The translations under genes and the position numbers were made by a program. Positions 4,808 to 59,847 of a DNA stretch of 64,000 nucleotides are shown piece after piece. Source of the DNA: a virus; IMG/VR virus record IMGVR_UViG_3300027965_000212, positions 2,313-66,312 of that record, one strand, 5' to 3'. Position 1 is the first letter of the stretch; each line of letters begins with the position of its first letter. Below the pieces are notes generated by a model. That model had not been told where the DNA came from. It saw nothing but the letters and a program-made list of their open reading frames with translations, and made no database searches.

Positions 4808-4823
4808 TGCGCCAATTGGCGCA
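4808..4823. repeat. 16-bp palindrome copy 1 (intergenic)
   Basis: TGCGCCAATTGGCGCA. Confidence 0.95.
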
Positions 4824-4826
4824 TTC

Positions 4827-5213
4827 TCAGAACGGAAGCGCGTTGTCCGCAGCGGTCGCCTCGGCAGCGACCTTTGCCCATTGACGGCTCAGCCTGATGC
4901 GGTTCGCCATCTGCTGCTTCGGGGTCAGCCAGCGAAGATTGGACCGCTGGTTGTTGAGGCTGTCGCCATCCCGGTGGTCGCCAGTGTGCCGTGGCGTCGG
5001 CGGCTCGAGCCCCATGCGCTCACGCAAGATCACGCGATGCATGAGGATGGTGACATTGGCATCGCCAACCCGGATCGACCGGCGTGCGTAGATCAGATCG
5101 CCGCCGCGATGCGAGACCGCGAACGTCCAGAGCCACTGCATCAGAAAATCGTAATCGATGTCGGACACGGCAACTTCGAATTGCCGCGACCGTCCGATCG
5201 TGATGATCCGCAT
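4827..5213 (-). CDS. HNH endonuclease
   Basis: MHRVI...DHRDGDSLNNQRSNLRW. Confidence 0.85.
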   Translation of the reverse strand: MRIITIGRSRQFEVAVSDIDYDFLMQWLWTFAVSHRGGDLIYARRSIRVGDANVTILMHRVILRERMGLEPPTPRHTGDHRDGDSLNNQRSNLRWLTPKQQMANRIRLSRQWAKVAAEATAADNALPF

Positions 5214-6056
5214 TCAGTGCAAAATCTGCTCGATAACCGCCCAGGTCTTATTGCCGGCAACGCCATCTGCCTCGATGTCGTACGCCTCTTGGAAATGGCG
5301 GACGGCCGCGCGCGTCTTGTCGCCCTCGACGCCGTCGACAGCGAGCGGCGGATCGAGCTGCAGGATCTGGTTGAGATCGGTCTGCAGCGCCCGCACCGAG
5401 CGGTCGGTTGTGCGTCGGACCGGCTCCGGCCGGGGCGGTGCAAGCGGCGCCAGGCCGAGGCCTTTGCGGAAGAGATCAGCCTCATGGCCGCGCCGGCGCC
5501 AGAGATCGCTTCCTTCCAGCCAGAGCCGGCGCATCGACAGGAATTCGTCTGGGATGAGATCGAAGCGCCCAGCCAGCATATGCGCCTTGATGGACCGCAT
5601 TTCGGCATAGCGAGGCCCTGGTTCGTCGAACGAGCAGCCCCGGTTATAGGCGAGGCTCACCAGCGCGCCGTAGCTGTCGCCTGTCAGCTTGGCCGTAGGC
5701 AGCGCCGCATCGAGCCGCGCTTCCCACTTGGGCATCTCGCGCGTCGAGAATTCGGCGAGTGCCTGGTCCCAGGTGACGGTGACGCTGGTGCCATGCTGGG
5801 CGACGAATTGGTGTGCCGCCTCGCCCTTGAGGCCGCACGCCAACAGTACATGCGGGAGCATGTCATCGCTCAGGATCCCGCGGCAGTCGGCGGTCGCCTC
5901 ATCGCGCGTGACATAGCCGCAGTCGTAGCCGATCATGATGGTCGGGCCGGAGGCGCCCTGCGGCCATTCGAAGTGCGCGCAGTGGCGCAGATAATAAATC
6001 TTTCCGTCGACCTCCTCGGAGACGATCAAATTGAAGGCGTCCTGCGAGGATCTCAC
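5214..6056 (-). CDS. Endolysin: lysozyme-like (pesticin/T4L-type) domain plus C-terminal peptidoglycan-binding domain
   Basis: EE..SGPTIMIGYDCG, ALVSLAYNRG, RRRGHEADLF; LAVDGVEGDKTRAAVRHFQ..ADGVAGNKTW. Confidence 0.85.
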   Translation of the reverse strand: MRSSQDAFNLIVSEEVDGKIYYLRHCAHFEWPQGASGPTIMIGYDCGYVTRDEATADCRGILSDDMLPHVLLACGLKGEAAHQFVAQHGTSVTVTWDQALAEFSTREMPKWEARLDAALPTAKLTGDSYGALVSLAYNRGCSFDEPGPRYAEMRSIKAHMLAGRFDLIPDEFLSMRRLWLEGSDLWRRRGHEADLFRKGLGLAPLAPPRPEPVRRTTDRSVRALQTDLNQILQLDPPLAVDGVEGDKTRAAVRHFQEAYDIEADGVAGNKTWAVIEQILH

Positions 6057-6763
6057 GGAGATACCTCCGGCAGCGCCGCGCGCACCATCTTGCCGAGACC
6101 GACGCGGTCGAGCTCCTCCCAGACCTTGTTGAGCCAGGAGCGAACGTAGCCGCGCAGGATGCGCGATTGCCGATCATCGACCGTGAAGGCGGAGAATGAG
6201 CCGCCGAGCTTCTGGATCATCTCGCAGGCCTGCGCCGGGATATGCGGCACGCTCACCGTCATTCCGGACATCTGGGCGAAGATCGTGGCGAAGCGGTTGT
6301 CGCTGTCCCAATCGAAGAACCCAGTTTCGTTGATGTAGTTCTTGACGATGAAATGTTTGGTGCCTCCGCCGACCAGGCGCGCGGCCTGGTCGATCTCGTT
6401 GAACGAGGCGATCGAGGGGCCGAGCACATGCAGGAGCGCCAGGTTGATCTTGCCGCCGCGGATGTCGGTCAACAGCTGCGCCTCATCGAGCGCGCGCAGC
6501 GTGGGCGACAAGAGCCCGGCGCGGATGTCAAGGACGGTGACACCCTCGAGCGCGTCGAAGACCTTCATCTGGTCGCCGACCCTCTCGATGTCGATGACGG
6601 TTGCGCTGGGGCTAAAGCGCTTGAGATCGCCGGCCGGCCATTCGGAATCGAACAGCTTGGCGACAGCGCCGCGCGCGATCAGATAATCATCGAGCGCGCG
6701 CGCGACCGTAGTCTTGCCGACGCCGCCCTTGTCGGCGCCGACCATGATGATGAGCGGGGTCAT
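6053..6763 (-). CDS. ParA/MinD-type deviant Walker A ATPase
   Basis: VGADKGGVGKTT, FDSE, VTVLD; stop overlaps the endolysin start (GTGA). Confidence 0.8.
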   Translation of the reverse strand: MTPLIIMVGADKGGVGKTTVARALDDYLIARGAVAKLFDSEWPAGDLKRFSPSATVIDIERVGDQMKVFDALEGVTVLDIRAGLLSPTLRALDEAQLLTDIRGGKINLALLHVLGPSIASFNEIDQAARLVGGGTKHFIVKNYINETGFFDWDSDNRFATIFAQMSGMTVSVPHIPAQACEMIQKLGGSFSAFTVDDRQSRILRGYVRSWLNKVWEELDRVGLGKMVRAALPEVSP

Positions 6764-6841
6764 GTTTCGGCCTTTGATTTGCGCCGGAGCTGGCCGGCCA
6801 TAGCGCGCCGCGCGATGCGGCTCGTCGAGGAAGGTCAAGCT

Positions 6842-7881: not shown

Positions 7882-8517
7882 TCACTGATGAGCGTAGACC
7901 GAGTACCCGGCGACGCCATTGACGCGCCAAATCGAGATCGTGAACTTGTGGCCATTTGTGGTGTCGAGAGAAGCGCCGGTATTCGACCCGACTGTGAAGC
8001 CGGAGAAGCCGATCGCGCCGGCGCTGGCGGCATTGATCACCAACAGAAGACAGGACCCGTCGTTGGCTGGTGCTGCGATCGTGAATGCGCCATTGTTGGT
8101 AACGTACTGAAGCGGCCGCGCGCCGCAATCGATCGTCAGCGTTCCGCTCGATTGCGTGCCGAGATTGTCAGCATTAACGTTGGCGCCCCCCGTGACCGTT
8201 TGATCTGCGGCCGTGAGGATGGCATCCGGCGCCATCTTCAGAATAAATTGCGTGCCGTCCCACTCGACCTCAGTCGCCTCTCCGCTCTGGATTTCTCCAC
8301 CCACTAATGCGGTAAGGGCAGAGTTGGCCAACTTTTTGATAGCTTGAGCGCCGAGCCCGTTAACGTTGAGCGTCGCCGCGCCCGTATTGCTAAAGTTGGG
8401 AATGAATCGCAGCGGCACGCCGGGGAGATTCGAGGTCCAATTGTCGATGCTGATCGCGTAAGCGTTAGGCGACCCCGTCGACGCCACGTCCCACGTTTGT
8501 TGCTCTGGAAATGTCAT
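7882..8517 (-). CDS. Tail fibre-related protein
   Basis: NTGAATLNVNGLGAQAIKK motif typical of fibres; ATGA-coupled to the upstream gene. Confidence 0.7.
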   Translation of the reverse strand: MTFPEQQTWDVASTGSPNAYAISIDNWTSNLPGVPLRFIPNFSNTGAATLNVNGLGAQAIKKLANSALTALVGGEIQSGEATEVEWDGTQFILKMAPDAILTAADQTVTGGANVNADNLGTQSSGTLTIDCGARPLQYVTNNGAFTIAAPANDGSCLLLVINAASAGAIGFSGFTVGSNTGASLDTTNGHKFTISIWRVNGVAGYSVYAHQ

Positions 8518-9044
8518 GACGATTGCACATCCCATGTTGACGATCCGCCATAGACGAAGCTCGCGGATTGTTGTTGCTTGTCCATGATGAAATTCGTGTT
8601 GCCGGCGATGTTGTGCGTGGCCGGCGGAACGATGGTCACCTTCGCGGTGTCGAAGTTCTTGGCGACGTCGGAGATGCGGTAGGTCTTTCCGACGACGAGC
8701 GATCCGCTTGCTGCCAGGTTGACCGTCATCGCGGTGACGGCGGCGGTCCGGTTGAGCAGGATGTTCGCATCCGTCACGCAGTCGAGATTGAGCGTTGCGC
8801 TCGAGGTGACGATCCGGGTCGGCGGCAGGAAATTCCCGCCGAGAGCCTGGATTGCAGCGAGCAGCTGCGCGAGATTGCCGTTGCTCGGCGCCAGGCCGGC
8901 CGCCTGGATGACGGCGATAATTTCCCGCTGCGTGTACTCGATCGCTGCCGCCGGGATGATCGAGCCGGCCGTTCCTGTTGCCGGATTCCCGTTTACGTAG
9001 CTCGCGTTCGGATCGGCATTGCCGTAAGGCTGATTGTATTGCAT
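8514..9044 (-). CDS. Tail fibre baseplate-anchoring protein (Mu gp49/S N-terminal-like)
   Basis: QREIIAVIQAAGLAPSNGNLAQLLAAI motif; follows the DUF2313 gene. Confidence 0.75.
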   Translation of the reverse strand: MQYNQPYGNADPNASYVNGNPATGTAGSIIPAAAIEYTQREIIAVIQAAGLAPSNGNLAQLLAAIQALGGNFLPPTRIVTSSATLNLDCVTDANILLNRTAAVTAMTVNLAASGSLVVGKTYRISDVAKNFDTAKVTIVPPATHNIAGNTNFIMDKQQQSASFVYGGSSTWDVQSS

Positions 9045-9865: not shown

Positions 9866-10951
9866 TCAGGCCCACGTGATCACGCCCAGCGTCGCCATGT
9901 GCCCGTTATCAGGCTGCACGAAGTCCGACATCGTCAGGTCGAACGACGCCACGCCTTGCGTATAGCGGATTGCGGCGGACACCCATTCGCTGAAAATCGT
10001 CTGCCCGGGTATTGCGACCTCGAACAGCATCGCGCTCACGGACGTCGCTATGGCGGCCTTGACGGCCGTGAGCGTGGTGTTCGCGGCAACCGCCAGGTTC
10101 GCGACCGTGAAGTTCATCGGGTTGGCGACCGGCGCCACGACGAAGAGATCCTGCACCGTGACCGGCCTGACCGTATTGAGATAGGCCGTCACGGCCGCAA
10201 TGTCCGCGGCTTGCGGGAAGCCATTGAATGCCGCCTCGAGCTCGTCGCACATGAAGCGAACCGTCACGGTGCCGATGCCCATCTCCTGCGGATAGCACCA
10301 GGCGCGCGTGACGCCGGCGACGCTCTCGGTCCAGGTCACATAGTCGGCCTGGTCGCCGCCCATAGGCGGCTCCTGGATGCGCTGCAGGAGGCGCGCGAGC
10401 AGCTGCGGATCCGTCTCCGCATCGGTGCCTCCGGTCAGCGTGACGACCGTCGCGCCGGCATCGACGCCCGGAATGGCGATCGCAAGCGTCAGCGTTTCGC
10501 CGGCATCGAGATTGCCTGCTGCGCCTGCGATCGTCGCCCTTATCGTGCAAGCGGTCGCACCTGAAATCACGATGGCTTCGGTCGTTTCATAGCCAATCGC
10601 CGGGGAGCCATAGCCGACGAGCTGCGAGCCGACCGGAACCGGTGTCGTGGCAAGGCCCGTGAATGTCACCGAGCCGCTGGCGTAGGTCGCGGCCTTGCGG
10701 CCTTTGCTGCCGTCCGCATTGGTGAGGAAGATCGTCGCCCAGCGATCGAGGAACTCCGATTCCGCGGTGTCGGGCAGCAGCTGTTTCGCCAGCCAATCCA
10801 GATATCGCAGATTGAGATATGCGAGACCCGCGTTGCCATCCGCCAGCACGCGCGAATTTGAATTCGGCGGCAGCGGCGCGCCGATCTGCGCGGTCACATA
10901 GTCGCGGTTTTGCTGACGGACCTGCGTCAGCGTCTGCGTGTTCCAGGGCAT
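9866..10951 (-). CDS. Baseplate J-like wedge protein (Mu gp47-like)
   Basis: LLPDTAESEFLDRW, GGTDAETD, PPMGGDQADYVTW, GVTRAW. Confidence 0.93.
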   Translation of the reverse strand: MPWNTQTLTQVRQQNRDYVTAQIGAPLPPNSNSRVLADGNAGLAYLNLRYLDWLAKQLLPDTAESEFLDRWATIFLTNADGSKGRKAATYASGSVTFTGLATTPVPVGSQLVGYGSPAIGYETTEAIVISGATACTIRATIAGAAGNLDAGETLTLAIAIPGVDAGATVVTLTGGTDAETDPQLLARLLQRIQEPPMGGDQADYVTWTESVAGVTRAWCYPQEMGIGTVTVRFMCDELEAAFNGFPQAADIAAVTAYLNTVRPVTVQDLFVVAPVANPMNFTVANLAVAANTTLTAVKAAIATSVSAMLFEVAIPGQTIFSEWVSAAIRYTQGVASFDLTMSDFVQPDNGHMATLGVITWA

Positions 10952-10958
10952 CGGAGAC

Positions 10959-11954
10959 CTAGTTCAGGATCGCCGCGAAAGCGTGCCCGGTCGTCGCGCC
11001 CATCACGGTGATGGAGTCCTGCAGGACCACATCGCCGGATTTGCAGTTGAAGGTGCCGCCGGCGTTAAGAGTGAACGGCTGCGTCATGCTGCCAAACTTC
11101 ACATTGAGAATTTCGGTTGCCGTGGCGGGATTATGGATCATGCAGCCCTTGCGGGTCATCGAAGCGGCGGCAAGCGTCTGATAGCTCCCGCCTGTTGCGA
11201 TGGTCCCGCTTGCGTCCGTCGAGGTGACGCCCTGCGCCGAGGTCATCGCCGTATTGGTGACCTTCACGGATCCGGCAAATCGCGTGAAGGCCATGGTCAC
11301 GACAGCGCTTCCTGAGCCGAATGCAGTCGCCCGTAGCCGGACATTGGTCGCGCCGGCGACCTCGCATTCCAGCATTCCGTTTGCCGTGATGGAGCTCACC
11401 AGGTTAACGATCGCGGGGGCGCCGTTGACGTGGCAGCCCATCGCCCCATAGGTCGTCCCGCCGTCGATCGACTGCTCGAGCGCGAGCGTCGCGCCGGACC
11501 ATGTTCCGGACACCTGTATGCGCGCGGTCGAGGTTCCGTTCACCGCTTGAGTAACGGACGAATTCGCTGACGGCGTGCCGGTGACGATGTTGGAGCCGCC
11601 CTGCCCTGTCGTCGTGACAGAAGCGGAATCGACCGCCGAGATGTTGCCGGTCGATGGACGCACGTCCGGATCGCTCGGCCCCACGATAGGCAGCGAGGCG
11701 CTCTTGGTCTGCTGCCCCGCCGAGAGCGTCGCGTTGTTGAGCTCGAGATTGAAGAACTGCGGATTGGCTTGATTGAACGGATTTCCGCTCGCATCCGATG
11801 GCGAGACTTGCTGCTCCTGATTGCCTCCGATATTGAGGCTCAGGAACGAAATCGGGTTGCGGTTGCCGTCGAGCGCGGCCCAGTTCGCCAGCGCCGGGAT
11901 GCCAGCGCCGAGAACAAGGCAGATCGATGGGACGATGAGGCTGCGCAGCTTCAT
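10959..11954 (-). CDS. Exported beta-rich protein inserted between baseplate genes; paralogous to 21624-23267
   Basis: Signal peptide MKLRSLIVPSICLVLGAGIPALA; ATGA-coupled to gp46; SIDGGTTY Asp-box. Confidence 0.75.
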   Translation of the reverse strand: MKLRSLIVPSICLVLGAGIPALANWAALDGNRNPISFLSLNIGGNQEQQVSPSDASGNPFNQANPQFFNLELNNATLSAGQQTKSASLPIVGPSDPDVRPSTGNISAVDSASVTTTGQGGSNIVTGTPSANSSVTQAVNGTSTARIQVSGTWSGATLALEQSIDGGTTYGAMGCHVNGAPAIVNLVSSITANGMLECEVAGATNVRLRATAFGSGSAVVTMAFTRFAGSVKVTNTAMTSAQGVTSTDASGTIATGGSYQTLAAASMTRKGCMIHNPATATEILNVKFGSMTQPFTLNAGGTFNCKSGDVVLQDSITVMGATTGHAFAAILN

Positions 11955-12556
11955 CCGAGCGCTCCATACATGGAATTGTCAGGATCGGAGTAGTCGAGCG
12001 CCGGCGGTACCGGCGGGAACGCAAGCACAACAGGAGAAGCAGAGAGCTCGCTCCAGAGCATCTGATACTGGAGCGAGATTTCAGGCAGCGGTCCGCGGTA
12101 GAGCGTCACTTGCACATCGACACGCGAAGCATTGACCTGCATCAGCGATACGGAAAACTGCGAGATGATCTTGTTGTCGACGAACGGCTGCAGGCACTCG
12201 TTGACGTAGGCTTGTGCTTTGGCGAGGGTCGAACCTGCGGCAGCGGTTGAATCCGTGATCTTGTCGCGGCTCATCAACCAGAGGCGGACGCCGATCGGCC
12301 AGCCGCCCCACAGATCCGCCGCGCTGTCGTCACCCCACCAGCCGCGGCGATCGCTCGACCCGGGGATCGGCAGATTGTCCGAAGCATCGGCCAGGCGATC
12401 GGTGCCGAGGGCGATCGTAACAGCTGTTACCAACGCCTGGGTTTCGTCGAGGCCATTCTGCGATGGAACAAGGGCCGTCGTGCTCTTGATCCAATCGAGC
12501 GTGACGGCCTCTTGCCCGCCGAGCTGGCCGACCTGGACGATGCGAATGTCAGGCAT
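11951..12556 (-). CDS. Mu gp46-like baseplate protein
   Basis: ALGTDRLA, RRGWWGD, GVRLWL. Confidence 0.9.
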   Translation of the reverse strand: MPDIRIVQVGQLGGQEAVTLDWIKSTTALVPSQNGLDETQALVTAVTIALGTDRLADASDNLPIPGSSDRRGWWGDDSAADLWGGWPIGVRLWLMSRDKITDSTAAAGSTLAKAQAYVNECLQPFVDNKIISQFSVSLMQVNASRVDVQVTLYRGPLPEISLQYQMLWSELSASPVVLAFPPVPPALDYSDPDNSMYGALG

Positions 12557-12634
12557 TTTTACTTCATTTTCCGCTTGACGGCTTTGAATAACGGTCTGCT
12601 AGGCTCCGCGCCTTTTTCGAACCAGGAGCTATTA

Positions 12635-12796
12635 ATGATCGAATTGTTGAAGCAGAAGCTTTCTATGCAGTGGCTACTTTTCGCACTCTTCCGACGCGGG
12701 AAGGGACCCGATCCCAAGGAAGTCGCGCAATTGACAATGCGTGAACGGCTTGACCGCCTTTATAAGAGCCTCGGCTGGGGCGAGGATCGCAAGTAA
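12635..12796 (+). CDS. 53-aa antisense moron with own promoter
   Basis: TTGACG (12575-80), GCTAGGCT near 12598, AGGAG SD, lower GC. Confidence 0.55.
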   Translation: MIELLKQKLSMQWLLFALFRRGKGPDPKEVAQLTMRERLDRLYKSLGWGEDRK

Positions 12797-12814
12797 CACA
12801 CGGTTCTCTGAGCT

Positions 12815-12830
12815 TGCGCCAATTGGCGCA
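12815..12830. repeat. 16-bp palindrome copy 2 (intergenic)
   Basis: TGCGCCAATTGGCGCA. Confidence 0.95.
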
Positions 12831-12833
12831 GGC

Positions 12834-13481
12834 TCAGGTCCCTGGAGTGGGCGCCGCGGTCGAACCGGCGCCGGCCGCTACGCCGCCATGCATGTGCGTC
12901 TGGACGCCAACTTGGCTACCGGTGCCCTTACCGGCGATCACATCGCCGCTGGTCTCGAAGTTTCCGGCATAGATGCCGCCGCCAATGGCCGTGATCGCAC
13001 CGCTGATCTGTACGCCGCCATTGACGATCAGGTTTCCGGTTACGGTGACGCCTGTCGACGACACCTCGAGCGAAACAGATCCAACTTGCACCGTGACCGG
13101 CAGATCACTTCCGCCGCCGAGGATCTTGATGCCGGCGCGGCTGATGTAGATCTGCTGCCCTTGGTCGTCGTAAAGCGAACTCTCGCCAGGCTGCAGGTTC
13201 TTGACTCGATAGCGGCGATCATCGGCCCGAATGATGATCGGATGCGAGCGGTTGCCGTTGACGAAGACCGCGACGATCTCCGCCGTCCCGTTCGAATCCG
13301 CAGGCTTCGGAACGCTGGTGAAGCCGTAATCCTGGAAGCGTTCGGCGCCGGCGAGGACCTCGTCATGCAGCAGGCGCACATCCGCCGTCTGCATCTTGAG
13401 CGCATCGTTGACGCGGGTAAGAGTGCCGCGCGCGATGGCGAGAAAGGAACGACCAGCAGTCGTAACGGCAGACAACCGCAT
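12834..13481 (-). CDS. Baseplate spike (Mu gp45-like)
   Basis: ERFQDYGFTSVP, DDRRYR..LQPGE...YD, C-terminal HxH (THMHGGV). Confidence 0.92.
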   Translation of the reverse strand: MRLSAVTTAGRSFLAIARGTLTRVNDALKMQTADVRLLHDEVLAGAERFQDYGFTSVPKPADSNGTAEIVAVFVNGNRSHPIIIRADDRRYRVKNLQPGESSLYDDQGQQIYISRAGIKILGGGSDLPVTVQVGSVSLEVSSTGVTVTGNLIVNGGVQISGAITAIGGGIYAGNFETSGDVIAGKGTGSQVGVQTHMHGGVAAGAGSTAAPTPGT

Positions 13482-15447: not shown

Positions 15448-15536
15448 CGCGGATACGGAGTCTTGCAACCGCAGGCGGCGAGGGTGCAGAATAAAATCTT
15501 AACTTTTCGGGGGGAGCTTCGAACGCTGTGCGATCG

Positions 15537-28925: not shown

Positions 28926-28955
28926 GAGCAAGCCTCGCGATGTTGGAAGGGAGGA

Positions 28956-28971
28956 TGCGCCAATTGGCGCA
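28956..28971. repeat. 16-bp palindrome copy 3 (intergenic)
   Basis: TGCGCCAATTGGCGCA. Confidence 0.95.
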
Positions 28972-28978
28972 GGCTGAT

Positions 28979-36676: not shown

Positions 36677-36683
36677 GTGCGGG

Positions 36684-36699
36684 TGCGCCAATTGGCGCA
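36684..36699. repeat. 16-bp palindrome copy 4 (just upstream of the portal start)
   Basis: TGCGCCAATTGGCGCA. Confidence 0.95.
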
Positions 36700-36704
36700 A
36701 GCTC

Positions 36705-46009: not shown

Positions 46010-46019
46010 ATTACCTCTC

Positions 46020-48695
46020 TCAGCTCATCGAGGGGGGGGGTGCGGCGGCGTCTTCGACCACGGGACCGCATTGCTCGAGGTCGAACAGCGCCGGCACGGC
46101 GAGCTTTTCCTCCGCCGCGCGGCAGTAGTGGACCGCGTCGAGGAATGTGCCGCCGTTGAGCTCTGAGCCGGCGCCGCGGCGGCCTTTGAGGATTGCCCGA
46201 TACGGCACGGTGCCGAGGCCTGCGAACGGGTCGTAGATCAGATCGCCGGGGTTGCTGTAGCAATCAATCAAACGGTCGACGATGTCCCACTGGAGAGGAC
46301 AGAGGTGTTTCTCGACCTTGCGTGCGGCCTGGTTGGAATTGAGCGTGCGCATGCGCAGCACGTCATGCCAGACGTCCGGATGCCAGCTCCCCGGCGCGAT
46401 GCACATGAACTTGGTCGGCAGGCGGTCCATCCGCTCGAGCGTCTCGCCGACCTTGACGTGCAGTTCGTAGTCGTAGATGCGCTTGAGCGAATCCTCGGTG
46501 AACACCTTGGCGAGCTGCTGCGGCCCGTAGGCGGCGAGCTCTTCCGCTGTCAGCAGGCGGTTGCCGCTCGATCGCCAATAGCCATGCGCGTCGACCTGCC
46601 AGCGCGCCCGCGTGTAGATTTCCTTGTCCTTGGTGACCGGCTCATCCGCGTAGCCGCGACTGCGATCCGACTGCGGCTTGCGGAGCAGAAGGATATATTC
46701 CGGCATGCCGCAGCCCATCTTGGTCGAATCCTTGGCGTTCTCCGACCAGCCGAGCCGATAGGTCTGCGCGTTCTCGCGCACCACATCGGTGATGACCGTC
46801 ACCATCCCCATGTAGTCGAAGCCGTGCGCGCGGTAGTGCATGATGGCTTCGGCGTGAAAGGGCAGCACGGTCGGCGCGCCCTTGCCGGTGACGGCGCCGA
46901 ACAGGATCCGGTCCTTGACGTGGATCGACATGCGCCGGCCAGGCTTGAGCATCCGGAAGAGCTTCGGCGTCAGAAAATCCATCTGCGCCCAGAAACCGGA
47001 GGTATCGGCCGGCGCATCGCCGTTGTGCCCAAAATCGTTGAAGGACTCCGCGTACTCGTACTGCGTTCCGAACGGGATCGACGACACGATCGCATCGACC
47101 GAGTTTTCGGCCCAACGCGAGGCCTCATCGACCGCATCGTTGTTGGCGATGACAAAGCGCTCGCCGCGCACCTCGACGCGCTTGAGGCCAATCGATCGGC
47201 GCAGAACCTCCGCAGTCGGCAGCTTGTCGAGGCCGAAGCGCTTGATGATCGCGCTCATGCGCTCGCGCAACTCGGTGTCGCGCTGCCACTTCTCGAGCAG
47301 GATCGCCCGCACTTCGCGCTCGGCTTCGGAATAAATGATATGCACATCGACCGGGTGCTGCTGGCCGAAGCGCTGGAGGCGATAGGTCGCTTGGATGAAA
47401 TCGTTGAACTTGAAGCCGACCCCGACAAAGATCGCGGTGTGGCAGTGATATTGAAAGTTCGACCCGGAGCCGGACAGGATCGGCTTGGTAGCAAAGTTCT
47501 TCACCTCGCCGCGCTCGAAGGCAACGAGGCTCTTTTCGCGCTCATCCGGATGCTCGCTGCCAGAGATCGCGACGACGTTGGGCACCGCGGCCTCGATCGC
47601 CTCGCGCTCAGCCTCGAGGTCATGCCAGAGCAGGTGATGCCGTCCGGGATCCTCCGCCATGATGGCGCACATCTTGGCGACCCGCGCCGGGATGCTCTCT
47701 CGCTTGGCGGCCGCGGCCTGGCTCACGCCGAGCGCGGCTGAGCGGAACAGCACAGTCTGACCGTCCCGTTCGACGTCGGCCTTACTGTGATCCGCCGGCA
47801 CCTCGTGCCAGTGCACGCGGATCGGCGGCAGGTCATAGCCCTCATCTGAATAACCGAGATCGCTCGGCTTCTGCACGAACGCGGCCCAGGAGTGCACCCA
47901 GAGCCAGAACTCCTCCTCTTTGTGCGGATAGAGCGTGAGATCGCCTGCCTGCTCGCTGTTGCGTTGGAACCAGCGGGTCAAGGCCTGCCCGGTATCCATG
48001 ATGCCGAGGAAGCCGGCGTAGTGGATCAGCTCCTTGTAGCGATTGGGCGAAGGCGTTGCGGTGCAGACCAGCTTGAACGGAATATGCTCGAAGAGCGGCA
48101 GGAACTCCTGGAAGGTCTTGCTGCCGTAGCTGCGCAGCACACTCGCCTCATCGAGCGATGACGCCGCGAACGAGCGCAGGTTGAGCTTCCCGTCGCGCAC
48201 GGGCTCATAGTTGGTGCAATAGTGCTCGCAGCCAGCCACCATCTCGCTTTCGTGCTGGATGAAGCGGAGATCGATGCCTAGCGCCGCTGCGTCGCTCATG
48301 AAACCGTGCCGCACGCCGTACGGCATGACGATCAGGGTCGGGCCGCCGTCGCTATGGCGCGCGATCTGTCGCGTCCATTCGAGCTGCATTGAGGTCTTGT
48401 GCAGTCCGAAGGCCGCGAAGATCGCGCGGTTGCCGCCACGCAAGGCCCAGGTGACAAGGTCGCGGCAGTGCGGCTTGAGCCAGGGATGCAGCTCGCGCGG
48501 GTCGACATCAAAGCCGGACGCCTCAGCGACCCGCATCTTGGATTCAAGGAATTCGGTATAGTCGGGCCATTCAACGGTGATTTCCTCATCCTCGAAATTG
48601 GCAGCTAAGCCATTGATGGGATTGGCCGGAGGGTTGATTTCCTCCGGAGCGGGTGCGCCAATTGGCGCAGGCTCAAGCTGCGCAAGCGCGGTCAT
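46020..48695 (-). CDS. SF2/SNF2 helicase-like plus N4/N6 DNA methyltransferase fusion
   Basis: FGLHKT, DEAS, TATPSPN, RFGQ; then SIPF, HLCPLQ, DPFAGLGT (beta-class order). Confidence 0.9.
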   Translation of the reverse strand: MTALAQLEPAPIGAPAPEEINPPANPINGLAANFEDEEITVEWPDYTEFLESKMRVAEASGFDVDPRELHPWLKPHCRDLVTWALRGGNRAIFAAFGLHKTSMQLEWTRQIARHSDGGPTLIVMPYGVRHGFMSDAAALGIDLRFIQHESEMVAGCEHYCTNYEPVRDGKLNLRSFAASSLDEASVLRSYGSKTFQEFLPLFEHIPFKLVCTATPSPNRYKELIHYAGFLGIMDTGQALTRWFQRNSEQAGDLTLYPHKEEEFWLWVHSWAAFVQKPSDLGYSDEGYDLPPIRVHWHEVPADHSKADVERDGQTVLFRSAALGVSQAAAAKRESIPARVAKMCAIMAEDPGRHHLLWHDLEAEREAIEAAVPNVVAISGSEHPDEREKSLVAFERGEVKNFATKPILSGSGSNFQYHCHTAIFVGVGFKFNDFIQATYRLQRFGQQHPVDVHIIYSEAEREVRAILLEKWQRDTELRERMSAIIKRFGLDKLPTAEVLRRSIGLKRVEVRGERFVIANNDAVDEASRWAENSVDAIVSSIPFGTQYEYAESFNDFGHNGDAPADTSGFWAQMDFLTPKLFRMLKPGRRMSIHVKDRILFGAVTGKGAPTVLPFHAEAIMHYRAHGFDYMGMVTVITDVVRENAQTYRLGWSENAKDSTKMGCGMPEYILLLRKPQSDRSRGYADEPVTKDKEIYTRARWQVDAHGYWRSSGNRLLTAEELAAYGPQQLAKVFTEDSLKRIYDYELHVKVGETLERMDRLPTKFMCIAPGSWHPDVWHDVLRMRTLNSNQAARKVEKHLCPLQWDIVDRLIDCYSNPGDLIYDPFAGLGTVPYRAILKGRRGAGSELNGGTFLDAVHYCRAAEEKLAVPALFDLEQCGPVVEDAAAPPPSMS
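48654..48669. repeat. 16-bp palindrome copy 5 (5' end of helicase-methylase gene)
   Basis: TGCGCCAATTGGCGCA encoding APIGA. Confidence 0.95.
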
Positions 48696-52123: not shown

Positions 52124-52636
52124 TCATGGCGCGCTCCGCTTATTGCGGGCGCGGTCGAAGCGCTCGATTTCGGCGAGGATCAGGGCCGCACCGCGGACGA
52201 GATCGCGGCGGATATTGTGCGGCTTCCACCAATCAGGAGCCCAAGGCCAGACCAGCTCCGCCGTCTTGGCGCGGACGCCGTTCCCGTAGATCGCGTAAGC
52301 CGCGCCAGCGCGGGCGAGATCGCCAGGCGCATGAGCGTCGTCGTGTTCCGCGGTCCAGCCCTCGGCATCGATCTGACGGCGCCGCTCGGCCAATACAGCG
52401 AGCGCGGCGGCCGACATCGGCACGCGAATGTGCAGGGCTTCGAAGACGCGGCGCAGGATGAATTGCCGCGCGATTGACACGAAGGTCATTACAACTGCGA
52501 ACGCAACATTCTGTGAAAACGAAACCGCGACGCCGAGCATCGGCAGCACGGTCGCCTGGGCGAGCAGAGAAATGCCGAAGCCGGCCGCGGTCGATAGGCT
52601 CGTTTCAAGCAGTGACATCGCGCGCGGCTGTTTCAT
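52124..52636 (-). CDS. Two-domain hypothetical (TM N-terminus plus AERRRQ..EGW domain)
   Basis: MKQ..MSLLE..RRVFE; ERRRQIDAEGWTAEHDD..WPW..WKP..LILAEIER. Confidence 0.7.
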   Translation of the reverse strand: MKQPRAMSLLETSLSTAAGFGISLLAQATVLPMLGVAVSFSQNVAFAVVMTFVSIARQFILRRVFEALHIRVPMSAAALAVLAERRRQIDAEGWTAEHDDAHAPGDLARAGAAYAIYGNGVRAKTAELVWPWAPDWWKPHNIRRDLVRGAALILAEIERFDRARNKRSAP

Positions 52637-53076
52637 GGCGCATCCCACACCAATTGATCGGGAACTTCGAAGAGGCCCTGGCGTCCGCGATACGGAATCG
52701 GCGTCGCGAACCTGCGGAAGGCGCCGCGCTGGAAGGCAAAGCGGCCGGGCGTGAAGTCTCCGCAAATGAAGTCGTCGCTCGGATCCTGCTCGCCGACCAT
52801 CTGCGTGCCGGGCGGGAAAACCTGCTCGGTTGGCTTGCAGTCGATGATCTCGACAATGCCGATCAGCGCGCCGGTCGGCAGCTCAAGGCCCCAGTGCGAT
52901 CCGAAGTCGCTATCGAGGATTGTCTCGAGCGCAGGATCGACATCGCGCACGAACTTCTTTGCTGCATGCACAACAAGCTTGCCGCGATGGCGCAATGGCC
53001 AATGTCGCGTTTCGTGAATCTTTGCCGGCGAGCACCAGAGGCTTGCCCACGGCTGCCAGAGCGAGAGCGCTTTCAT
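52633..53076 (-). CDS. ASCH-domain protein
   Basis: MKALSLWQPWASL..K.HETR.W..RG..HAA, GRQGLF. Confidence 0.9.
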   Translation of the reverse strand: MKALSLWQPWASLWCSPAKIHETRHWPLRHRGKLVVHAAKKFVRDVDPALETILDSDFGSHWGLELPTGALIGIVEIIDCKPTEQVFPPGTQMVGEQDPSDDFICGDFTPGRFAFQRGAFRRFATPIPYRGRQGLFEVPDQLVWDAP

Positions 53077-53264: not shown

Positions 53265-54037
53265 GCCGCGGGTGCCTCCGCAGCTGCGCGAGCCTCATCG
53301 TTTCGGCGCTTGATCTCGGTGCTGACCGCGAACATCACATCCTCATCGAAATCGCGGGCGAGCACCCAATGGAGGAAGCCGTCATCGACCTCGCTCCAGC
53401 GCTTGCCGCGGTGTTGGCCGAATGGCACGCGCGGCAACAGCGCCGGCTCGCTTGTCCATTGGATCAACTGCTCGAGCGGAACGGTTTCCAGCATCGCGGC
53501 GAGCAGATGCGCGGTGACATAGGCGTCCGGTAGCGCGCGATGGGCAAGCTCCGCATATTCGCGGATGAGCCCGGGAGGCTTCAGCCAGTAGCGTAGCGCT
53601 TGATTGGAATGAGCCGGCGCATCCGGCCAGAGGCGAAGGGCGCACTTCCAGGTGCAGACCCAGGGCGCCCCCCCCGTCATTTCATCGGAGATGAAGGCGC
53701 GCTCGAATTTGGCCGAGTGCGCGCACCAAGCCGCGACCGGAATGGTATAGCGGTCGAGCGCGAGAGACGTGAAGATCGGCCACGCATCCGCGAAGGACGG
53801 TGCGCCGATCAGATCCTCATCAACGATATGGTGGACGGCGCTCGCGACCGGCGGGATCACCCTACTCGGCCGACAGAGCCTGTTGCGATGGGCATGATAT
53901 TCGACCGTCGACCGCCCGCTGTTACGCAGCACATCGACCGTGGCGACTTCGATCACCTCGGCGTCAGGGGGAAATCCGGTCGTTTCAAGGTCAACGACGC
54001 GGATCAGGCTCACGGTTTCGTCAATCGTATCGCTCAC
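53261..54037 (-). CDS. DEDDh 3'-5' exonuclease (ExoX-like)
   Basis: VDLETTG, AHSAKFE, HRALPD, PFGQHRGK.W. Confidence 0.9.
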   Translation of the reverse strand: MSDTIDETVSLIRVVDLETTGFPPDAEVIEVATVDVLRNSGRSTVEYHAHRNRLCRPSRVIPPVASAVHHIVDEDLIGAPSFADAWPIFTSLALDRYTIPVAAWCAHSAKFERAFISDEMTGGAPWVCTWKCALRLWPDAPAHSNQALRYWLKPPGLIREYAELAHRALPDAYVTAHLLAAMLETVPLEQLIQWTSEPALLPRVPFGQHRGKRWSEVDDGFLHWVLARDFDEDVMFAVSTEIKRRNDEARAAAEAPAA

Positions 54038-55926
54038 TCTGCAGCCTCCATCGCCGGACCAGCGGCGTAAATCACCGTCTCGATCGGCGCCCACTTGTTG
54101 CAGGTCATGCCGGCGCCGATCGCGCCGCTGACGCGACGACATTCGTGCTCGCTGATGCGGTTCTTGCAGGCGCCGCAGTGCCGATATCCGCCTGGGGTCC
54201 CCGGGTTAAACCCGGGGATCGCGCGGTAATGCGCTTCGTCCTGGCTGATCTGATCTTGCGGTTCTGGCGGGACCGCCTGGTTGCCCCAGAAGCGCCAGTC
54301 CGGCCACCTGCTTTCATCGAGCAGGCGATTGCCGGCGTCATCAAAGACACGGGCGAACAACTCGATCTTGGGAACGCCCGGAAAATAGCGGTCGATCATC
54401 GCGCGGACCGCATCCGGCTTGGCCGAATGCTCGCCCACGACCGTATCTAGGATCGACAGGTCCTGTTGCCCCTCGAGCGGGCAAGGCACGTCGCCCTTGA
54501 CGCCGAGCAGCAACAATTCGTGCGCGTTGATCCACCAGAAGCCGGTGCCGCGGTGCCAGTTTCCGGAGGTCGAGCGCTTGGCCCAGACCATGTGTGAGCG
54601 ATAATCGCCCTCCCCGACCGGCGCCAAGGCTTTGCCGTTCTCACGAACGAGGCGACCTTGCGCATCGCGCGGGCGCAGCCTGCAGAATCCCCACTCGGCC
54701 ATCAACTCGATCTGGTCGATCAGCGAAGGCTGCCAGGCGTACATCAGGAGCGCGCAGTTATCGGCGGCGAGCTCTCGCACCGGCAGGTCGATAAGCGCAT
54801 CGAGCGGTGCCGTCGCGTAGTGATTTTCCGGCGACTTCTCCATGCCAGTCTGTGCCGACCAGGCCTTCCAGTCGCGCGGAATATCGACATAGATCACGCC
54901 AAACTTATTGCCGGTGAGCAAGGGAGCCGCTTGCGGCGCGCGCATCTGCTCGAGCTTGCGCTCGCGGCTTTGCTCGCGTTTCGCTGTGCGGTTTGCCTTC
55001 GCCACATCCTTGACGGCCTTCGGATCGGCGCTGGCGATGATGCGCTTCTGCTCCTCGATCGGGAGCTGAGCGATCTCGGCGGCAGCTTCCGTCGCGACCT
55101 TGCCGGCCGTGACCGCCTCGACGAGCTCCGGCGCGCCCTTCTGCGCCACAACGGCCGCGCGTTGGACGCTGCGGCGCGAGACGTTCATCAGCTCCGCCGC
55201 CTCGGTCTGAGACATCAGCGGCTTTGGCGGCTCGATCGGCGAAGGCGCCTGCACCCGCTCAACAAACTCGCGCACGTCAGTTGGAGGAAGGTCGCTCTTG
55301 ATGGGCTTGCCGTCGAATTCGCACCAATGCGCCTCGCAGGCAGCGTCCATCTGGACGCCCTTGTCTGACACCGGAAAGCGGAAGACGGCGCCGCACTCGC
55401 AGGTGCCGACGCTCATCGGCTCATTGCCGTCGCCCGGATATTCGCGCGTCATGGTGATGACGTGCCCGGCCGGCCAGCTTGTGCGGGTCGGTTTCGCGGG
55501 GCGCGTAGGCTGCGCGAGCGGCAGAGCGGGTGCGCCAATTGGCGCAGGCTTGGCCGTGTGCTGGTTGCCGCCAAGCCTGATCTCCGCCATTTTCGCGGCG
55601 ATCATCGCGCGCTGTTGCGTATTCAAGTGGCGGCGATGGATGTTCTCCGAGGCGACCAGGTCGAGGGCTTCGCGGTCAGAACCGGCAAAGACCTGCGTCG
55701 CGATCCCGATGCCGAGCTCGGTTGCGGCCTTATAGCGATTGCGGCCGTCGAGGAGCATTCCCCGATGAAGGATGATCGGATGATTGATGCCGTTCTGCTT
55801 GATGTCGGCGAGGTGGGCGGCATATTCCGCATCGCTCATCATCGGGAACAGATCGGCGAACGGGTGCGGCTTGAGCGCCGGCGCGCCGGGCGGCAGATGT
55901 TGGACGGAGCCGAGCTTGATGGTCAT
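54034..55926 (-). CDS. ParB-N + HTH + MT-A70 methyltransferase + HiPIP-like fusion
   Basis: LLDGRNR, ENIHRRHL, SQTEAAELMNVSRRSV, YVDIPR, HY, W.K, HE.LL.G.KG, EHSAKP, IELFAR, WGNQ, CxxC..C..C. Confidence 0.88.
   Translation of the reverse strand: MTIKLGSVQHLPPGAPALKPHPFADLFPMMSDAEYAAHLADIKQNGINHPIILHRGMLLDGRNRYKAATELGIGIATQVFAGSDREALDLVASENIHRRHLNTQQRAMIAAKMAEIRLGGNQHTAKPAPIGAPALPLAQPTRPAKPTRTSWPAGHVITMTREYPGDGNEPMSVGTCECGAVFRFPVSDKGVQMDAACEAHWCEFDGKPIKSDLPPTDVREFVERVQAPSPIEPPKPLMSQTEAAELMNVSRRSVQRAAVVAQKGAPELVEAVTAGKVATEAAAEIAQLPIEEQKRIIASADPKAVKDVAKANRTAKREQSRERKLEQMRAPQAAPLLTGNKFGVIYVDIPRDWKAWSAQTGMEKSPENHYATAPLDALIDLPVRELAADNCALLMYAWQPSLIDQIELMAEWGFCRLRPRDAQGRLVRENGKALAPVGEGDYRSHMVWAKRSTSGNWHRGTGFWWINAHELLLLGVKGDVPCPLEGQQDLSILDTVVGEHSAKPDAVRAMIDRYFPGVPKIELFARVFDDAGNRLLDESRWPDWRFWGNQAVPPEPQDQISQDEAHYRAIPGFNPGTPGGYRHCGACKNRISEHECRRVSGAIGAGMTCNKWAPIETVIYAAGPAMEAAE
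55531..55546. repeat. 16-bp palindrome copy 6 (inside the ParB gene)
   Basis: TGCGCCAATTGGCGCA encoding APIGA after GGNQH. Confidence 0.95.
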
Positions 55927-57962: not shown

Positions 57963-58032
57963 GAAAGCATTGCTTTCCCGATGTTGCAAGCACCTCTTTC
58001 AGTGATTGAAAGCGAGCGAAAGGTTACCTTTC
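57963..58032. promoter_or_regulatory. OR-like triple operator
   Basis: GAAAGCATTGCTTTC 57963-77, GCAAGCACCTCTTTC 57986-58000, GAAAGGTTACCTTTC 58018-32. Confidence 0.85.
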
Positions 58033-58037
58033 AATGC

Positions 58038-58757
58038 ATGGACAGCCAAAAAACACTCGGTGAGCGAATACGTTACATACGAAAAGGGCATGGCCTCTCG
58101 CAGCAGCAGTTCGGAAAAATTCTGGGGGTAGAGCGCGGCGCCGTTGGCAATTGGGAACTCGGGAAGGGAATCAAGTCCGAGAATCAACGGCAGATCAGCC
58201 AAAAATTCCATGTAACGCTGGATTGGCTGATGAACGGCGACGCAGAGCTCCCTCAAATGCCGAGCAATCGCGAACTATTTCCAAGTTTTCGCGTGAGCCA
58301 TCATGGCCTTGAAGAGCCAGTTCCGATCCAGCCTGCGCCGCCGGCCGGAGCCGTCGAGCTCGGTTCAACAGTGCCGCTAATGCGACAGGGCCGGGCCGGA
58401 AAAGACGGTCAATTCGGCTTTACCCGGGAGCAGGCGGCCGATGTCCCGGCTCCCCCGGCCATCGCCCGGGTCCGCGACGCCTATGCGGTGTATGTGGTCG
58501 GAGAATCCATGCAACCTCGATACGATCCGGGCGAAATCGTGTTTGTGGACCCTAACAGGCCGGTAAATCCCGGCCATTACGTTGTGGCCCAAATCGCGGG
58601 TGAGGGCGGCGAAGGCCCGGTCGGATACATCAAGCGCTTTCTTGGTCGCGACAGCCGGCAGCTGCGCCTGGAGCAATTCAACCCAAAGAAAATACTTACG
58701 TTTCCATTGAAGAGCGTGATTTCGGTCGATCGGATACTCATGAGCGGGGACGGATGA
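58038..58757 (+). CDS. CI-like repressor (XRE HTH plus S24 peptidase)
   Basis: LGERIR..LSQQQFG..V..WE.G; GESMQP..GE.VFVDP; IKR. Confidence 0.95.
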   Translation: MDSQKTLGERIRYIRKGHGLSQQQFGKILGVERGAVGNWELGKGIKSENQRQISQKFHVTLDWLMNGDAELPQMPSNRELFPSFRVSHHGLEEPVPIQPAPPAGAVELGSTVPLMRQGRAGKDGQFGFTREQAADVPAPPAIARVRDAYAVYVVGESMQPRYDPGEIVFVDPNRPVNPGHYVVAQIAGEGGEGPVGYIKRFLGRDSRQLRLEQFNPKKILTFPLKSVISVDRILMSGDG

Positions 58758-59098
58758 TGAGGTTTATTATCGCCTTGAGCCTAGCTGTTGCCGCCGCCTC
58801 TGGGGCGGAGGCGAGGGCCCCAAACATCTCCGATACGACAGGATGGCTTTCGCGCGTCGCCGAAGCCTCCGTCGCGGCGAAGGCGTGCGGCTACGAGATC
58901 AACGCCAACAAGGTCATGGGCGAAATGCTCGCCACATACGATTCGATGGACAGCTTCACGGGAGAGTTTTTCGGCGATCAGCTCGATAAGCAGGAAGCCG
59001 CGCTCAGGCGCGATCGAACTGGATTTTGCCGCCGCGCCTGGGACAAATTCGGAGCAACCGGCAGCGACATCAAGAGCTTGCTTCTGCCCGGAAGATAA
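58754..59098 (+). CDS. Exported protein co-transcribed with cI
   Basis: ATGA overlap; signal peptide ending AEA; Cys pair. Confidence 0.7.
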   Translation: MMRFIIALSLAVAAASGAEARAPNISDTTGWLSRVAEASVAAKACGYEINANKVMGEMLATYDSMDSFTGEFFGDQLDKQEAALRRDRTGFCRRAWDKFGATGSDIKSLLLPGR

Positions 59099-59104
59099 AC
59101 GCCG

Positions 59105-59153
59105 GAAAGCGCTGCTTTCTTTTTGCTTGCGCTGAAATGAAAGAAATGCTTTC
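59105..59153. promoter_or_regulatory. OL-like double operator
   Basis: GAAAGCGCTGCTTTC 59105-19 and GAAAGAAATGCTTTC 59139-53. Confidence 0.85.
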
Positions 59154-59182
59154 ATCCCTCTCGTTCGTCGGGAGGGGCATCC

Positions 59183-59371
59183 ATGCGCGTCAAAATCTGG
59201 GAAGAGGTTTGCGGCACCGACAACTTCGCGCCCGGTCCCGAATGCGATCTCCCCGAATGCTTCCCGGATGATGCGGACAGCCGGCGTGAGGCTGAGGCTG
59301 ACCTCCTCAAATCTGGATTTCACTTTGGCGGCGGCGCGGCTCCCTGCTTCATGCTGGAGCGCGTGTCTTGA
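59183..59371 (+). CDS. First gene of PL-like operon, hypothetical
   Basis: GGAGG SD downstream of the operators. Confidence 0.6.
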   Translation: MRVKIWEEVCGTDNFAPGPECDLPECFPDDADSRREAEADLLKSGFHFGGGAAPCFMLERVS

Positions 59372-59847
59372 CTCCGGCCCCCGCGCACCTTCCCGCCGCC
59401 CAGCAGATCGGGCTGCTGATCCTGCGCAAGAGCGAGCTCGCCGATGCTTGCGCCTCGCGGCTCCGGGCCGAGGGCGCCCCGCATCCATCGGAGGCGGATT
59501 ACCTCGCGCTCAGCCGTACAGGCTTTGCCATGCGCTCCCCGGCCGGGACGCGCATGCTCACCCCCCTCGGCAAATCCCGCACTGACGCCTTCGCCATCGC
59601 GATCGCGCGGCAGTTCCGCCTGCATGTGATCACGCACGGGTCGACACCCGGGGTCTGGTTCGTCCGCTGTTCGTGCGGGGAGTTCTTCACCTCCAAGCCG
59701 CACGCGATCCCGGGCGCGCTCGCCAAGGCGGCGGCGGCCGGCGCGCGGCATCTGCGCCTGGTCTGTGATCGCACTGAGCATGCGCCAATTGGCGCAGCCT
59801 CTACCCCCGCGATCCTGATCGCTGAAGAGACGCGGACAGCGCCATGA
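59368..59847 (+). CDS. Hypothetical with H..CxC..H motif
   Basis: Coupled; HVIT..CSCG..RH. Confidence 0.55.
   Translation: MTPAPAHLPAAQQIGLLILRKSELADACASRLRAEGAPHPSEADYLALSRTGFAMRSPAGTRMLTPLGKSRTDAFAIAIARQFRLHVITHGSTPGVWFVRCSCGEFFTSKPHAIPGALAKAAAAGARHLRLVCDRTEHAPIGAASTPAILIAEETRTAP
59781..59796. repeat. 16-bp palindrome copy 7
   Basis: TGCGCCAATTGGCGCA encoding APIGA. Confidence 0.95.

Follow-up and report, generated by a model that had tools for sequence, protein, structure and literature searches.

A 16-bp palindrome, TGCGCCAATTGGCGCA, recurs along a 64,000-nucleotide stretch of DNA (hereafter, the window; positions 2,313 to 66,312 of IMG/VR virus record IMGVR_UViG_3300027965_000212, corresponding to C11:521229-585228 of a 6.32-Mb assembly), which family searches characterised as a tailed prophage with most of its genes on the minus strand. 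The early leftward module of this prophage encodes a 630-aa protein (54034..55926, minus strand) that combines a ParB-type fold and a helix-turn-helix (HTH) region with an MT-A70 methyltransferase (MT) domain; the whole genome contains a single gene of this ParB-HTH-MT type. Comparison with homologs and related phages indicated that the palindrome is probably the cognate parS-like site of this protein, a site that would normally occur once, inside the gene itself, and that would have been spread genome-wide in the clade to which the window belongs. The initial annotation had tied the motif to the ParB-HTH-MT gene, and this link was borne out by a fixed in-gene place across the family, a joint switch of all sites in one relative, covariation with the recognition helix and a ParB-type fold.

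Seven exact copies of the 16-mer were detected in the window (cores starting at 4808, 12815, 28956, 36684, 48654, 55531, and 59781), spaced by 4.3-16.1 kb over 55 kb and reaching, within one prophage, from the lysis genes to the repressor/integrase end. The number and positions of the copies given in the initial annotation were reproduced on a recount, and its expectation of about 1e-5 copies per 64 kb was arithmetically right (64000/4^16). Allowing up to 2 mismatches yielded no further copy in the window, and dinucleotide-preserving shuffles of the window contained a mean of 0.14 copies, with a maximum of 1. A frequency count in the host, which the same annotation had proposed, showed that 7 of the 7 copies in the whole 6,318,172-base genome lay inside the window and none outside the prophage, while a search of 60 related genomes, 36 congeneric and 24 from other families of the order, found the 16-mer in none. 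Chance occurrence or a host-wide repeat was ruled out by these two results. A scan of genome contigs was uninformative either way, because the stretches with the 16-mer, at least 119, compared with about 139 expected by uniform composition in 596 billion bases.

Conservation was not confined to the 16-mer. Forty-one distinct copies, taken from the window and from related phages, provided 82 half-sites. Position -3 was G in 82 of 82, position -2 was C or G in 81, and position -1 was C in 58; positions -1 and -2 both belonged to the C-or-G class, and an A was preferred at position -4. The shared flanks remarked upon in the initial annotation were therefore real, and their conservation enlarges the element to a 22-bp dyad, G-S-S-core-S-S-C, of which the 16-mer is the core. 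Positions -2 and -1 were often non-complementary between the two sides of the dyad, and a pattern of this kind, symmetric but without pairing, is more in keeping with two identical protein subunits than with a stem. Outside the 22-bp dyad the flanks were unrelated, and an origin from a miniature inverted-repeat transposable element (MITE)-like mobile element was consequently not favoured. Intrinsic terminators were also rejected, as no T-run followed any of the 7 copies on either strand and the stem spanned only 6 bp.

The subdivision of the copies into four intergenic and three coding ones agreed with the context read from the sequence (dyads have no strand assigned). The four intergenic copies occupied short gaps between minus-strand genes, 3-7 nt past the upstream stop codon. 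Copy 1 (4805..4826, core 4808-4823) was located between an HNH-like gene (4827-5213) and a gene for a 159-aa protein (4311-4790), copy 2 (12812..12833, core 12815-12830) in the baseplate region, 3 nt past the stop codon of gene 12834-13481, copy 3 (28953..28974, core 28956-28971) between a gene for an 88-aa protein and the tail sheath gene (27411-28931), and copy 4 (36681..36702, core 36684-36699) between a head-tail adaptor-like gene (36857-37108) and the portal gene. The likely ATG of the portal gene (36676) lay 7 nt downstream of copy 4, which fell inside only the longest, TTG-started version of that open reading frame (ORF). The three coding copies all read A-P-I-G-A. Copy 5 (48651..48672, core 48654-48669) encoded residues 9-14 (PAPIGA) of an 891-aa helicase/N6_N4-methylase, copy 6 (55528..55549, core 55531-55546) was found in the linker that follows GGNQH in the ParB-HTH-MT-A70 protein, a position conserved family-wide, and copy 7 (59778..59799, core 59781-59796) was located near the C-terminus (HAPIGAAS) of a 159-aa ORF (59368-59847). 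Near copy 2, the lower-G+C stretch 12560-12800 between two baseplate genes was without a minus-strand gene; a small plus-strand ORF in it ended just before copy 2, which places this copy between convergent gene ends.

The in-gene position proved to be the most widely shared property of the element. Two record searches, given 50 and 30 loci with one locus per record, covered 50 and 26 distinct records, and the records G061-G065 were covered by a separate one. Eighty further homolog loci were fetched and 79 scored, one (L322) being left out as it showed no recognisable motif. A perfect palindrome of 10-28 bp was present at the in-gene spot in 61 of the 79 loci (47 centred on AAATTT and 14 on CAATTG), with arms that varied by lineage and changed symmetrically; control stretches further down the same genes mostly contained palindromes of 4-12 bp. 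At this spot A-N-L was written GCA AAT TTG in 34 of 45 genes, against 0.7% predicted by the genes' own codon usage. Pairing was analysed in 55 distinct 32-nt sites. In this set, which was picked for an A/T-centred palindrome of at least 10 bp, so that the inner five pairs are paired by selection and the nine outer ones free, and which consists of related sequences that are not independent, 82.1% of the cells were paired (60.7% when shuffled), 166 cells had changed on both sides (62 when shuffled), and the covariation score was 0.477 (0.141 when shuffled and at most 0.146 with partners slid). The nine outer pairs contained 7 G-U-type cells versus 138 unpaired ones, a scarcity that points to symmetry of duplex DNA and not to an RNA stem. 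The central AATT was invariant in 55 of the 55 aligned sites.

Copy number within single phages followed a simple pattern. Among 22 records with AAATTT-centred sites, GCAAATTTGC occurred once in 19, was absent in one, and was found twice in one and four times in one. No second copy of the record's own palindrome turned up in any of five records whose sites had other CAATTG centres; the symmetric 8-mer core occurred once in three of these five, and in the remaining G157 and G158 the sole other symmetric match had a different core or (in the count for locus L269) did not amount to the full palindrome. A complete 66.9-kb record from another branch of the family contained the window's exact 16-mer once, in-gene, together with a helix, NVSRRGVQRA, almost identical to that of the window. 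A single in-gene copy thus appears to be the rule, and dispersal appears special to the window's clade.

Outside the methylase fusions, a locus with a canonical GERR-type phage ParB-like protein of 288 aa and no methylase domain in its ORF (L362:2538-2563) carried a 26-bp perfect palindrome with a AAAATTTT centre at the equivalent spot before the HTH; the in-gene site may therefore extend beyond methylase fusions. In a branch with ParB-HTH proteins of 686-763 aa, the 12-bp palindrome CGCAAATTTGCG occurred twice, about 4 kb apart (L356:3037 and 7035; L357:1712 and 5685), once in-gene before the HTH and once upstream.

The in-gene palindrome and the protein that contains it changed in concert. 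The position immediately preceding the final Ala of the recognition helix (R256 in the window) was occupied by Arg in 16 of 16 rows with a CAATTG-centred site and in 0 of 47 with an AAATTT-centred site, so that the helix Arg tracked the palindrome centre in 63 of 63 rows; the window itself, with R256 and a CAATTG centre, was consistent with this pattern. In a tree built from 157 columns, from which the helix columns were excluded, both traits changed 8 times and always together, with at least 5 of the changes forced by well-supported branches. This tree did not include L246, L278, or the window row, as the HTH pattern missed their helix within the search span. All independent pairs were concordant, 5 of 5 on supported branches and 8 of 8 when the best tree was used. 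The 157-column tree replaced one based on 98 columns of the N-terminal domain only, which was poorly resolved and offered 2 independent pairs on supported branches.

One relative suggested a natural change of specificity. This was G066, the record with four copies, placed in the window's clade with support 100/100. The in-gene site and the 3 dispersed sites of G066 all read TGCGCAAATTTGCGCA with the usual GGC/GCC flanks, and its helix contained QSA where relatives have QRA. One of the dispersed copies lay where a 616-aa ORF begins (MNERAQICAADD); this beginning is similar to that of the SNF2 helicase homolog of G062 (MNELAPIGAPDADD), which carries the window's motif there, and correspondence of the two genes is by likeness only. 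All sites of this phage thus appear to have switched along with the one in its ParB-MT gene. The co-variation that the initial annotation had asked about was thereby found at both levels, with the in-gene palindrome tracking the genome-wide repeat in G066 and the recognition-helix residue across the 63 rows.

Sequence and structure comparisons of the protein fitted a role as reader of the dyad. The 630-aa protein matched Pfam family MT-A70 (PF05063; E 6.1e-11; score 43 bits, cut-off 23.9), and PHROG matches of 54034..55926 were to methyltransferase and ParB-like families. An AlphaFold2 model of residues 1-345, based on a 65-sequence alignment, had predicted local distance difference test (pLDDT) values above 90 in the ParB/Srx-type N-terminal domain (residues 1-118; 55573..55926, minus strand) and in the HTH DNA-binding region (residues 236-330; 54937..55221, minus strand). 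It placed helices at 240-246 and 251-263, the latter being the predicted recognition helix (RRSVQRAAVVAQK), which includes R256. The 11 best chains in a Foldseek search were Noc, pNOB8 ParB, ParB-CDP, Myxococcus ParB (CTPγS), and Spo0J (E 6e-6 to 1.6e-4, at least 300 columns); Caulobacter ParB-parS and KorB (8qa9) were also among the top matches, all of which are two-domain ParB-family structures. A family profile matched Spo0J (1vz0; E 1.4e-5, positions 33-189) and, among MT-A70 chains, ciliate 7f4r (E 1.9e-24) and METTL3 (E 1.5e-21).

The nucleotide-binding motifs of ParB are Box II (GxxRxxA) and Box III (ENxxRxxL). In the window protein these are represented by a Box II-type G61-R62-N63-R64-Y-K-A67, which reads GRNR instead of GERR, and a Box III-type E94-N95-I-H-R98-R99-H-L101. 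Residues D60, G61, R62, N63, R64, N95, and R99 were invariant in 65 sequences; PMC12704722 states what the Box II arginine does. By its fold and profile matches, the N-terminal part has the two-domain fold of ParB, Noc, and KorB. An MT-A70 methylase domain takes the place of ParB's C-terminal dimerisation domain. Prediction of a homodimer of residues 1-345 gave scores of 0.00 and 0.00 against a mark of 0.42 and weighs neither way. In three members of the multi-copy clade the same ParB-HTH and site were followed by a different methylase domain. As two types of methylase domain thus occur with them, the site goes with the ParB-HTH part of the protein. A metagenome scan with the N-terminal 345 residues returned 10 mostly short loci, which were not used.

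As a separate observation, the linker of the window protein is lengthened by roughly 90 residues (residues 140-230, 55237-55509); this insert contains Cys/His pairs and, with low confidence, a small predicted beta-sheet. Relatives lacked it in their ParB-MT proteins and had a similar segment in their helicase/methylase proteins of 900-1500 aa (identity 32-43%, E values down to 4e-12).

Dispersed copies were also found in other phages. A scan of IMG/VR returned 99 stretches with the 16-mer, several per contig, and five records of 54-57 kb, assembled from stored loci, represented phages with 4-5 copies each at 0-1 mismatch. The structural genes of these five relatives were mostly unrelated to those of the window, and it was mainly the early module that was common to them. 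By BLASTP, a ParB-MT homolog was present in 5 of 5, and an initiator-like protein and a 213-aa protein each in 4 of 5; the large helicase/methylase, the C5-methylase, and the SNF2 helicase each occurred in 3 of 5. The in-gene copy between G.NQH and the HTH was present in the ParB-MT gene of the window and of 4 of the 5 relatives. Over the six genomes, 17 of 19 copies within called ORFs were in the A-P-I-G-A frame, in Pro/Ala/Gly-rich stretches of different proteins. These placements suggest that a DNA word is conserved and is placed where the protein tolerates it.

According to the preferred reading, in which the palindrome is the cognate site of the ParB-HTH-MT protein, the sites would work like parS, Noc-binding sites, or KorB operators, with both HTH domains of a dimer reading each 22-bp dyad. 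For most phages, a lone in-gene copy would turn gene and site into a self-contained cassette for self-targeting or autoregulation. In the window's clade, the site would have been seeded every 4-16 kb in intergenic gaps and flexible Pro/Ala/Gly linkers, the coding copies being in the one reading frame that tolerates it, and from these dyads the protein would occupy or spread over phage DNA only. Because the catalytic motif of the clade is atypical, a KorB-like DNA-bound regulator or organiser seems somewhat more likely than an active cis-methylase. A bolder proposal, which we put forward only tentatively, is that such gene-plus-site cassettes provide each phage with an NTP-gated clamp of its own, and with it a self/non-self label against the host chromosome and co-infecting relatives. 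The loading site would then be written in the linker codons, so that A-N-L and P-I-G are kept with rare codons, and specificity could be re-set by a single recognition-helix change, such as Arg to Ser together with CAATTG to AAATTT. With the site copied genome-wide in the window's clade, the clamp would load on, and coat or mark, the phage's own DNA only.

Several observations weigh against the assignment of the palindrome to the ParB-HTH-MT protein, or against parts of it. Every link between protein and site is correlative, and the selection and kinship of the 55 sites qualify the pairing statistics in the same direction. A palindrome of the kind described was lacking at the in-gene spot in 18 of the 79 homolog loci, and a sign test on the supported branches of the tree gave p = 0.0625. 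MT-A70 was the sole Pfam match of the window protein, with no ParB family at E<=0.01. No ParA partner was found among 40 window proteins scanned, a subset of the ORFs in the window; the sole ParA-like trace was a 27-residue P-loop match in 6053-6838 (E 3e-4). In one multi-copy relative, G064 (L241:6642-7937, L253), the in-gene copy had decayed and the linker read KAAAVDAPPL, while three exact copies and one with one mismatch remained elsewhere and the recognition helix was unchanged.

The initial annotation had also held that related phages keeping the sites without the ParB gene would speak against a role of the protein, and here the outcome was divided. Among near-complete GC-rich multi-copy records there was no such case. 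A low-GC (0.41-0.48) phage family, however, carried the same 16-mer (L160:5560-5760, L132, L195, L127, L193, L203), and a ParB-HTH match was obtained in 0 of the 4 records of this family searched, which were 13-71% complete (a fifth record in that search, G137, was a GC-rich fragment). In this family the 16-mer was packed into about 150 bp along with two further palindromes. The centre of one was of CCATGG type, and the core of the other matched exactly that of the in-gene site in homolog L284; the cluster could be an origin or centromere-like.

Two results weighed against the sliding-methyltransferase part of the earlier interpretation. Most homologous phages have a single copy, so that a genome-wide array is not needed for the function of the family. 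In addition, catalytic motif IV, which reads DP[PE]W in most homologs, was replaced by DPPT or SDFEW in the multi-copy clade and by V-D-I-P-R-D-W in the window. As this equivalent of motif IV is atypical, methylation by the clade is doubtful, and its methylase may be weak or inactive. The comparative link between the palindrome and the ParB fusion gene stood.

Among other explanations, static binding of the protein to its palindromes, without clamp formation or spreading, deserves most attention, even though we consider it unlikely. The protein would then methylate the AATT at the centre, which contains an ApT step, or act locally on transcription by blocking or tuning it, and at the in-gene copy it would autoregulate the methylase. 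The invariance of AATT in all aligned sites and the ciliate MT-A70 enzymes as best solved relatives of the methylase domain suit this explanation; according to the title of a reference in PMC12704722, ciliate MT-A70 enzymes methylate ApT. A single in-gene site in most family members would suit local control, and four of the window copies are in very short intergenic gaps. It is less easily reconciled with the occurrence of the same palindrome next to two unrelated methylase domains and with the atypical catalytic motif of the clade, and it leaves a conserved ParB-type N-terminal domain, with invariant GxxR and ENxxR-type residues, without an obvious role.

A function of the palindromes as DNA cruciforms or hairpins, or as RNA stem-loops in replication, transcript processing, or stability, would require no reading by the ParB-HTH part at all. 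Such an explanation accommodates arms that vary widely while complementarity is kept, with stems of up to 14 bp, and several copies are placed directly after stop codons. Folded as single strands, the window copies form a stem of 6 bp closed by an AATT loop, with energies of -6.7 to -7.1 kcal/mol. This stability is modest, however, and that of 1 of 3 copies tested was not above shuffles (z -1.44). No T-run follows the window copies, and no Rfam match reached the gathering score in the window. The rarity of G-U-type cells and the G at -3 in every half-site, next to unpaired positions, also speak for double-stranded DNA bound by protein, and structure alone does not explain the covariation of the Arg with the palindrome centre. 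Within a clade, moreover, the exact sequence, beyond pairing, is retained in all copies and across phages. We regard this explanation as very improbable. Less probable still is that another protein of the early module reads the sites and that the in-gene copy of ParB-MT is one site among many. Candidates are the HTH_36 initiator-like protein (41323-42597), the 213-aa protein (52124-52765), and the CI-like repressor (57981-58757), and dispersed repressor sites, or stoperators, offer a phage precedent (PMC4351075). The first two are each common to four of the five multi-copy relatives; each candidate is nevertheless absent from one of the five by BLASTP, whereas ParB-MT is in all. Moreover, among more distant records, in 19 of the 22 of AAATTT type and in 5 of 5 of CAATTG type the only copy of a phage's own palindrome is in the ParB-MT gene, and it is with the recognition helix of ParB-MT itself that the palindrome covaries.

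Comparison with known systems placed the prophage system, as far as sequences allow, with the ParB/parS and KorB/OB kind, of which it would be a member with an unusual in-gene site. The ParB/Spo0J-parS and Noc systems share with it a two-domain fold and a palindrome with a 16-bp core. In Bacillus subtilis a parS site is located inside the spo0J gene itself, a precedent for an in-gene site. The prophage site differs in sequence and in the 22-bp length of its dyad, as does the protein in its Box II, and in contrast to ParB/Spo0J-parS no ParA was found in the prophage, which, being an integrating one, would have no partition role. The linear plasmid prophage N15 has a SopA/SopB partition system with SopB centromere sites scattered in its genome. 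Scattered sites for a partition-type protein are thus common to N15 and the window, but the window prophage has an integrase and no ParA was found in it.

The RK2 plasmid system KorB/OB is similar in its ParB-family NTP-type N-terminal domain and HTH and in the presence of several dispersed palindromic sites on one mobile element. The 7 copies over 55 kb and the one ParB-HTH gene encoded with them would make up a dispersed array of the KorB/OB type, with the gene product as presumed binder. KorB itself is described as a CTP-dependent sliding clamp and long-range silencer (PMC11790492). The prophage protein differs in its MT-A70 C-terminal domain, which takes the place of a dimerisation domain, and in having one site in its own coding sequence; neither a ParA nor a KorA-like partner, for which no dedicated search was made, was identified.

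Fusions of a ParB CTPase fold to methyltransferases with the same domain architecture have been surveyed in phages, where, according to the text of PMC12704722 (2025), ParB-fold/DNA methylase fusions are frequent and enriched in prophage regions and some bind ATP or CTP. The available passages of that survey name no DNA site for these fusions ("palindrom" and "parS-like" occur 0 times in its main text), and the in-gene palindrome, its covariation, and its dispersal do not appear there, supplements aside. In the literature searched, supplements that may hold site or methylome data being outside its scope, no description was found of an in-gene palindrome in ParB-methylase genes or of the motif, nor any mention of the 16-mer or its 12-mer core; GCAAATTTGC occurred only as a model DNA dodecamer.

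Cluster O mycobacteriophages have 17-bp palindromes in more than 30 copies with a 3-bp spacer, the binder of which is given as not known in the available text of PMC4351075. As in the prophage, many exact dyad copies are spread genome-wide, between genes and in gene starts, and the phages encode a protein with a ParB-like domain. In phage Corndog (L363:2617-2633), 0 of 23 right-arm copies lay inside the ParB-like gene 90, the nearest being 135 nt below and 361 nt above it, and its product need not be related to the ParB-HTH-MT family. Because gene 90 holds none of the 17-bp repeats, the two systems need not be the same. The stoperators of Cluster A mycobacteriophages are described in the same source as asymmetric sites oriented with transcription, whereas the prophage site is a perfect palindrome with symmetric conserved flanks. 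Other ParB-like proteins have been recruited to other functions: the text of PMC12409273 presents BisD of ICEclc as repurposed for gene activation, and that of PMC13229309 describes phage thymine dioxygenases, DNA-modifying enzymes activated by a ParB that is without an obvious DNA-binding domain. Like the prophage protein these are ParB-like proteins of mobile elements or phages, but their partners and activities differ. HerB (bioRxiv 10.64898/2026.07.07.736705) and single-strand-specific plasmid methylases (PMC7736820) provide further precedents, as far as the available text of these sources goes.

Phage ParB-fold/methyltransferase fusions are thus common and come without a DNA target or role in the available passages of PMC12704722; the palindrome would offer a testable target for the family. 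Such tests could draw on the palindrome in the gene's own linker, on a residue that may set specificity, and on a series of naturally occurring site/protein pairs. The codon data point to DNA-level selection that fixes amino acids and rare codons inside the ParB-HTH-MT protein, and the dispersal of an in-gene site in one clade resembles the spread of KorB operators over RK2. If clamp loading or cis-restricted modification were confirmed, phages could mark or regulate their own DNA only.

Megablast of window positions 27000-47000 against the phage collection revealed no close phage relative; matches were limited to Arthrobacter phage helicase/methylase genes (72-73%, about 650-780 bases) and one match of 37 bases. 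No tRNA was found in the window. Family searches identified the endolysin (5214-6056), tail fibre (8514-9044), baseplate genes (9866-10951, 11951-12556, and 14317-15468), tail sheath (27411-28931), portal (35027-36676), and the large (37105-39033) and small (39033-39710) terminase subunits. Beyond these, the replication-initiator-like HTH_36 protein (41323-42597), an SNF2 helicase (43090-44868), the helicase/N6_N4 DNA methylase (46020..48695, minus strand; copy 5 in its first codons), a C5-methylase (49380-51242), the early-module 213-aa protein (52124-52765), the CI-like repressor (57981-58757), and an integrase (62621 to the window end) were located. The 159-aa ORF with copy 7 (59368..59847, plus strand), to which no function was assigned, belongs to a plus-strand operon on the repressor/integrase side, and its stop overlaps the start of the next gene (ATGA). 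The early module contains three genes of DNA methyltransferase type (helicase/N6_N4, C5-cytosine, and ParB-MT-A70), two of which hold a palindrome copy in their coding sequence.

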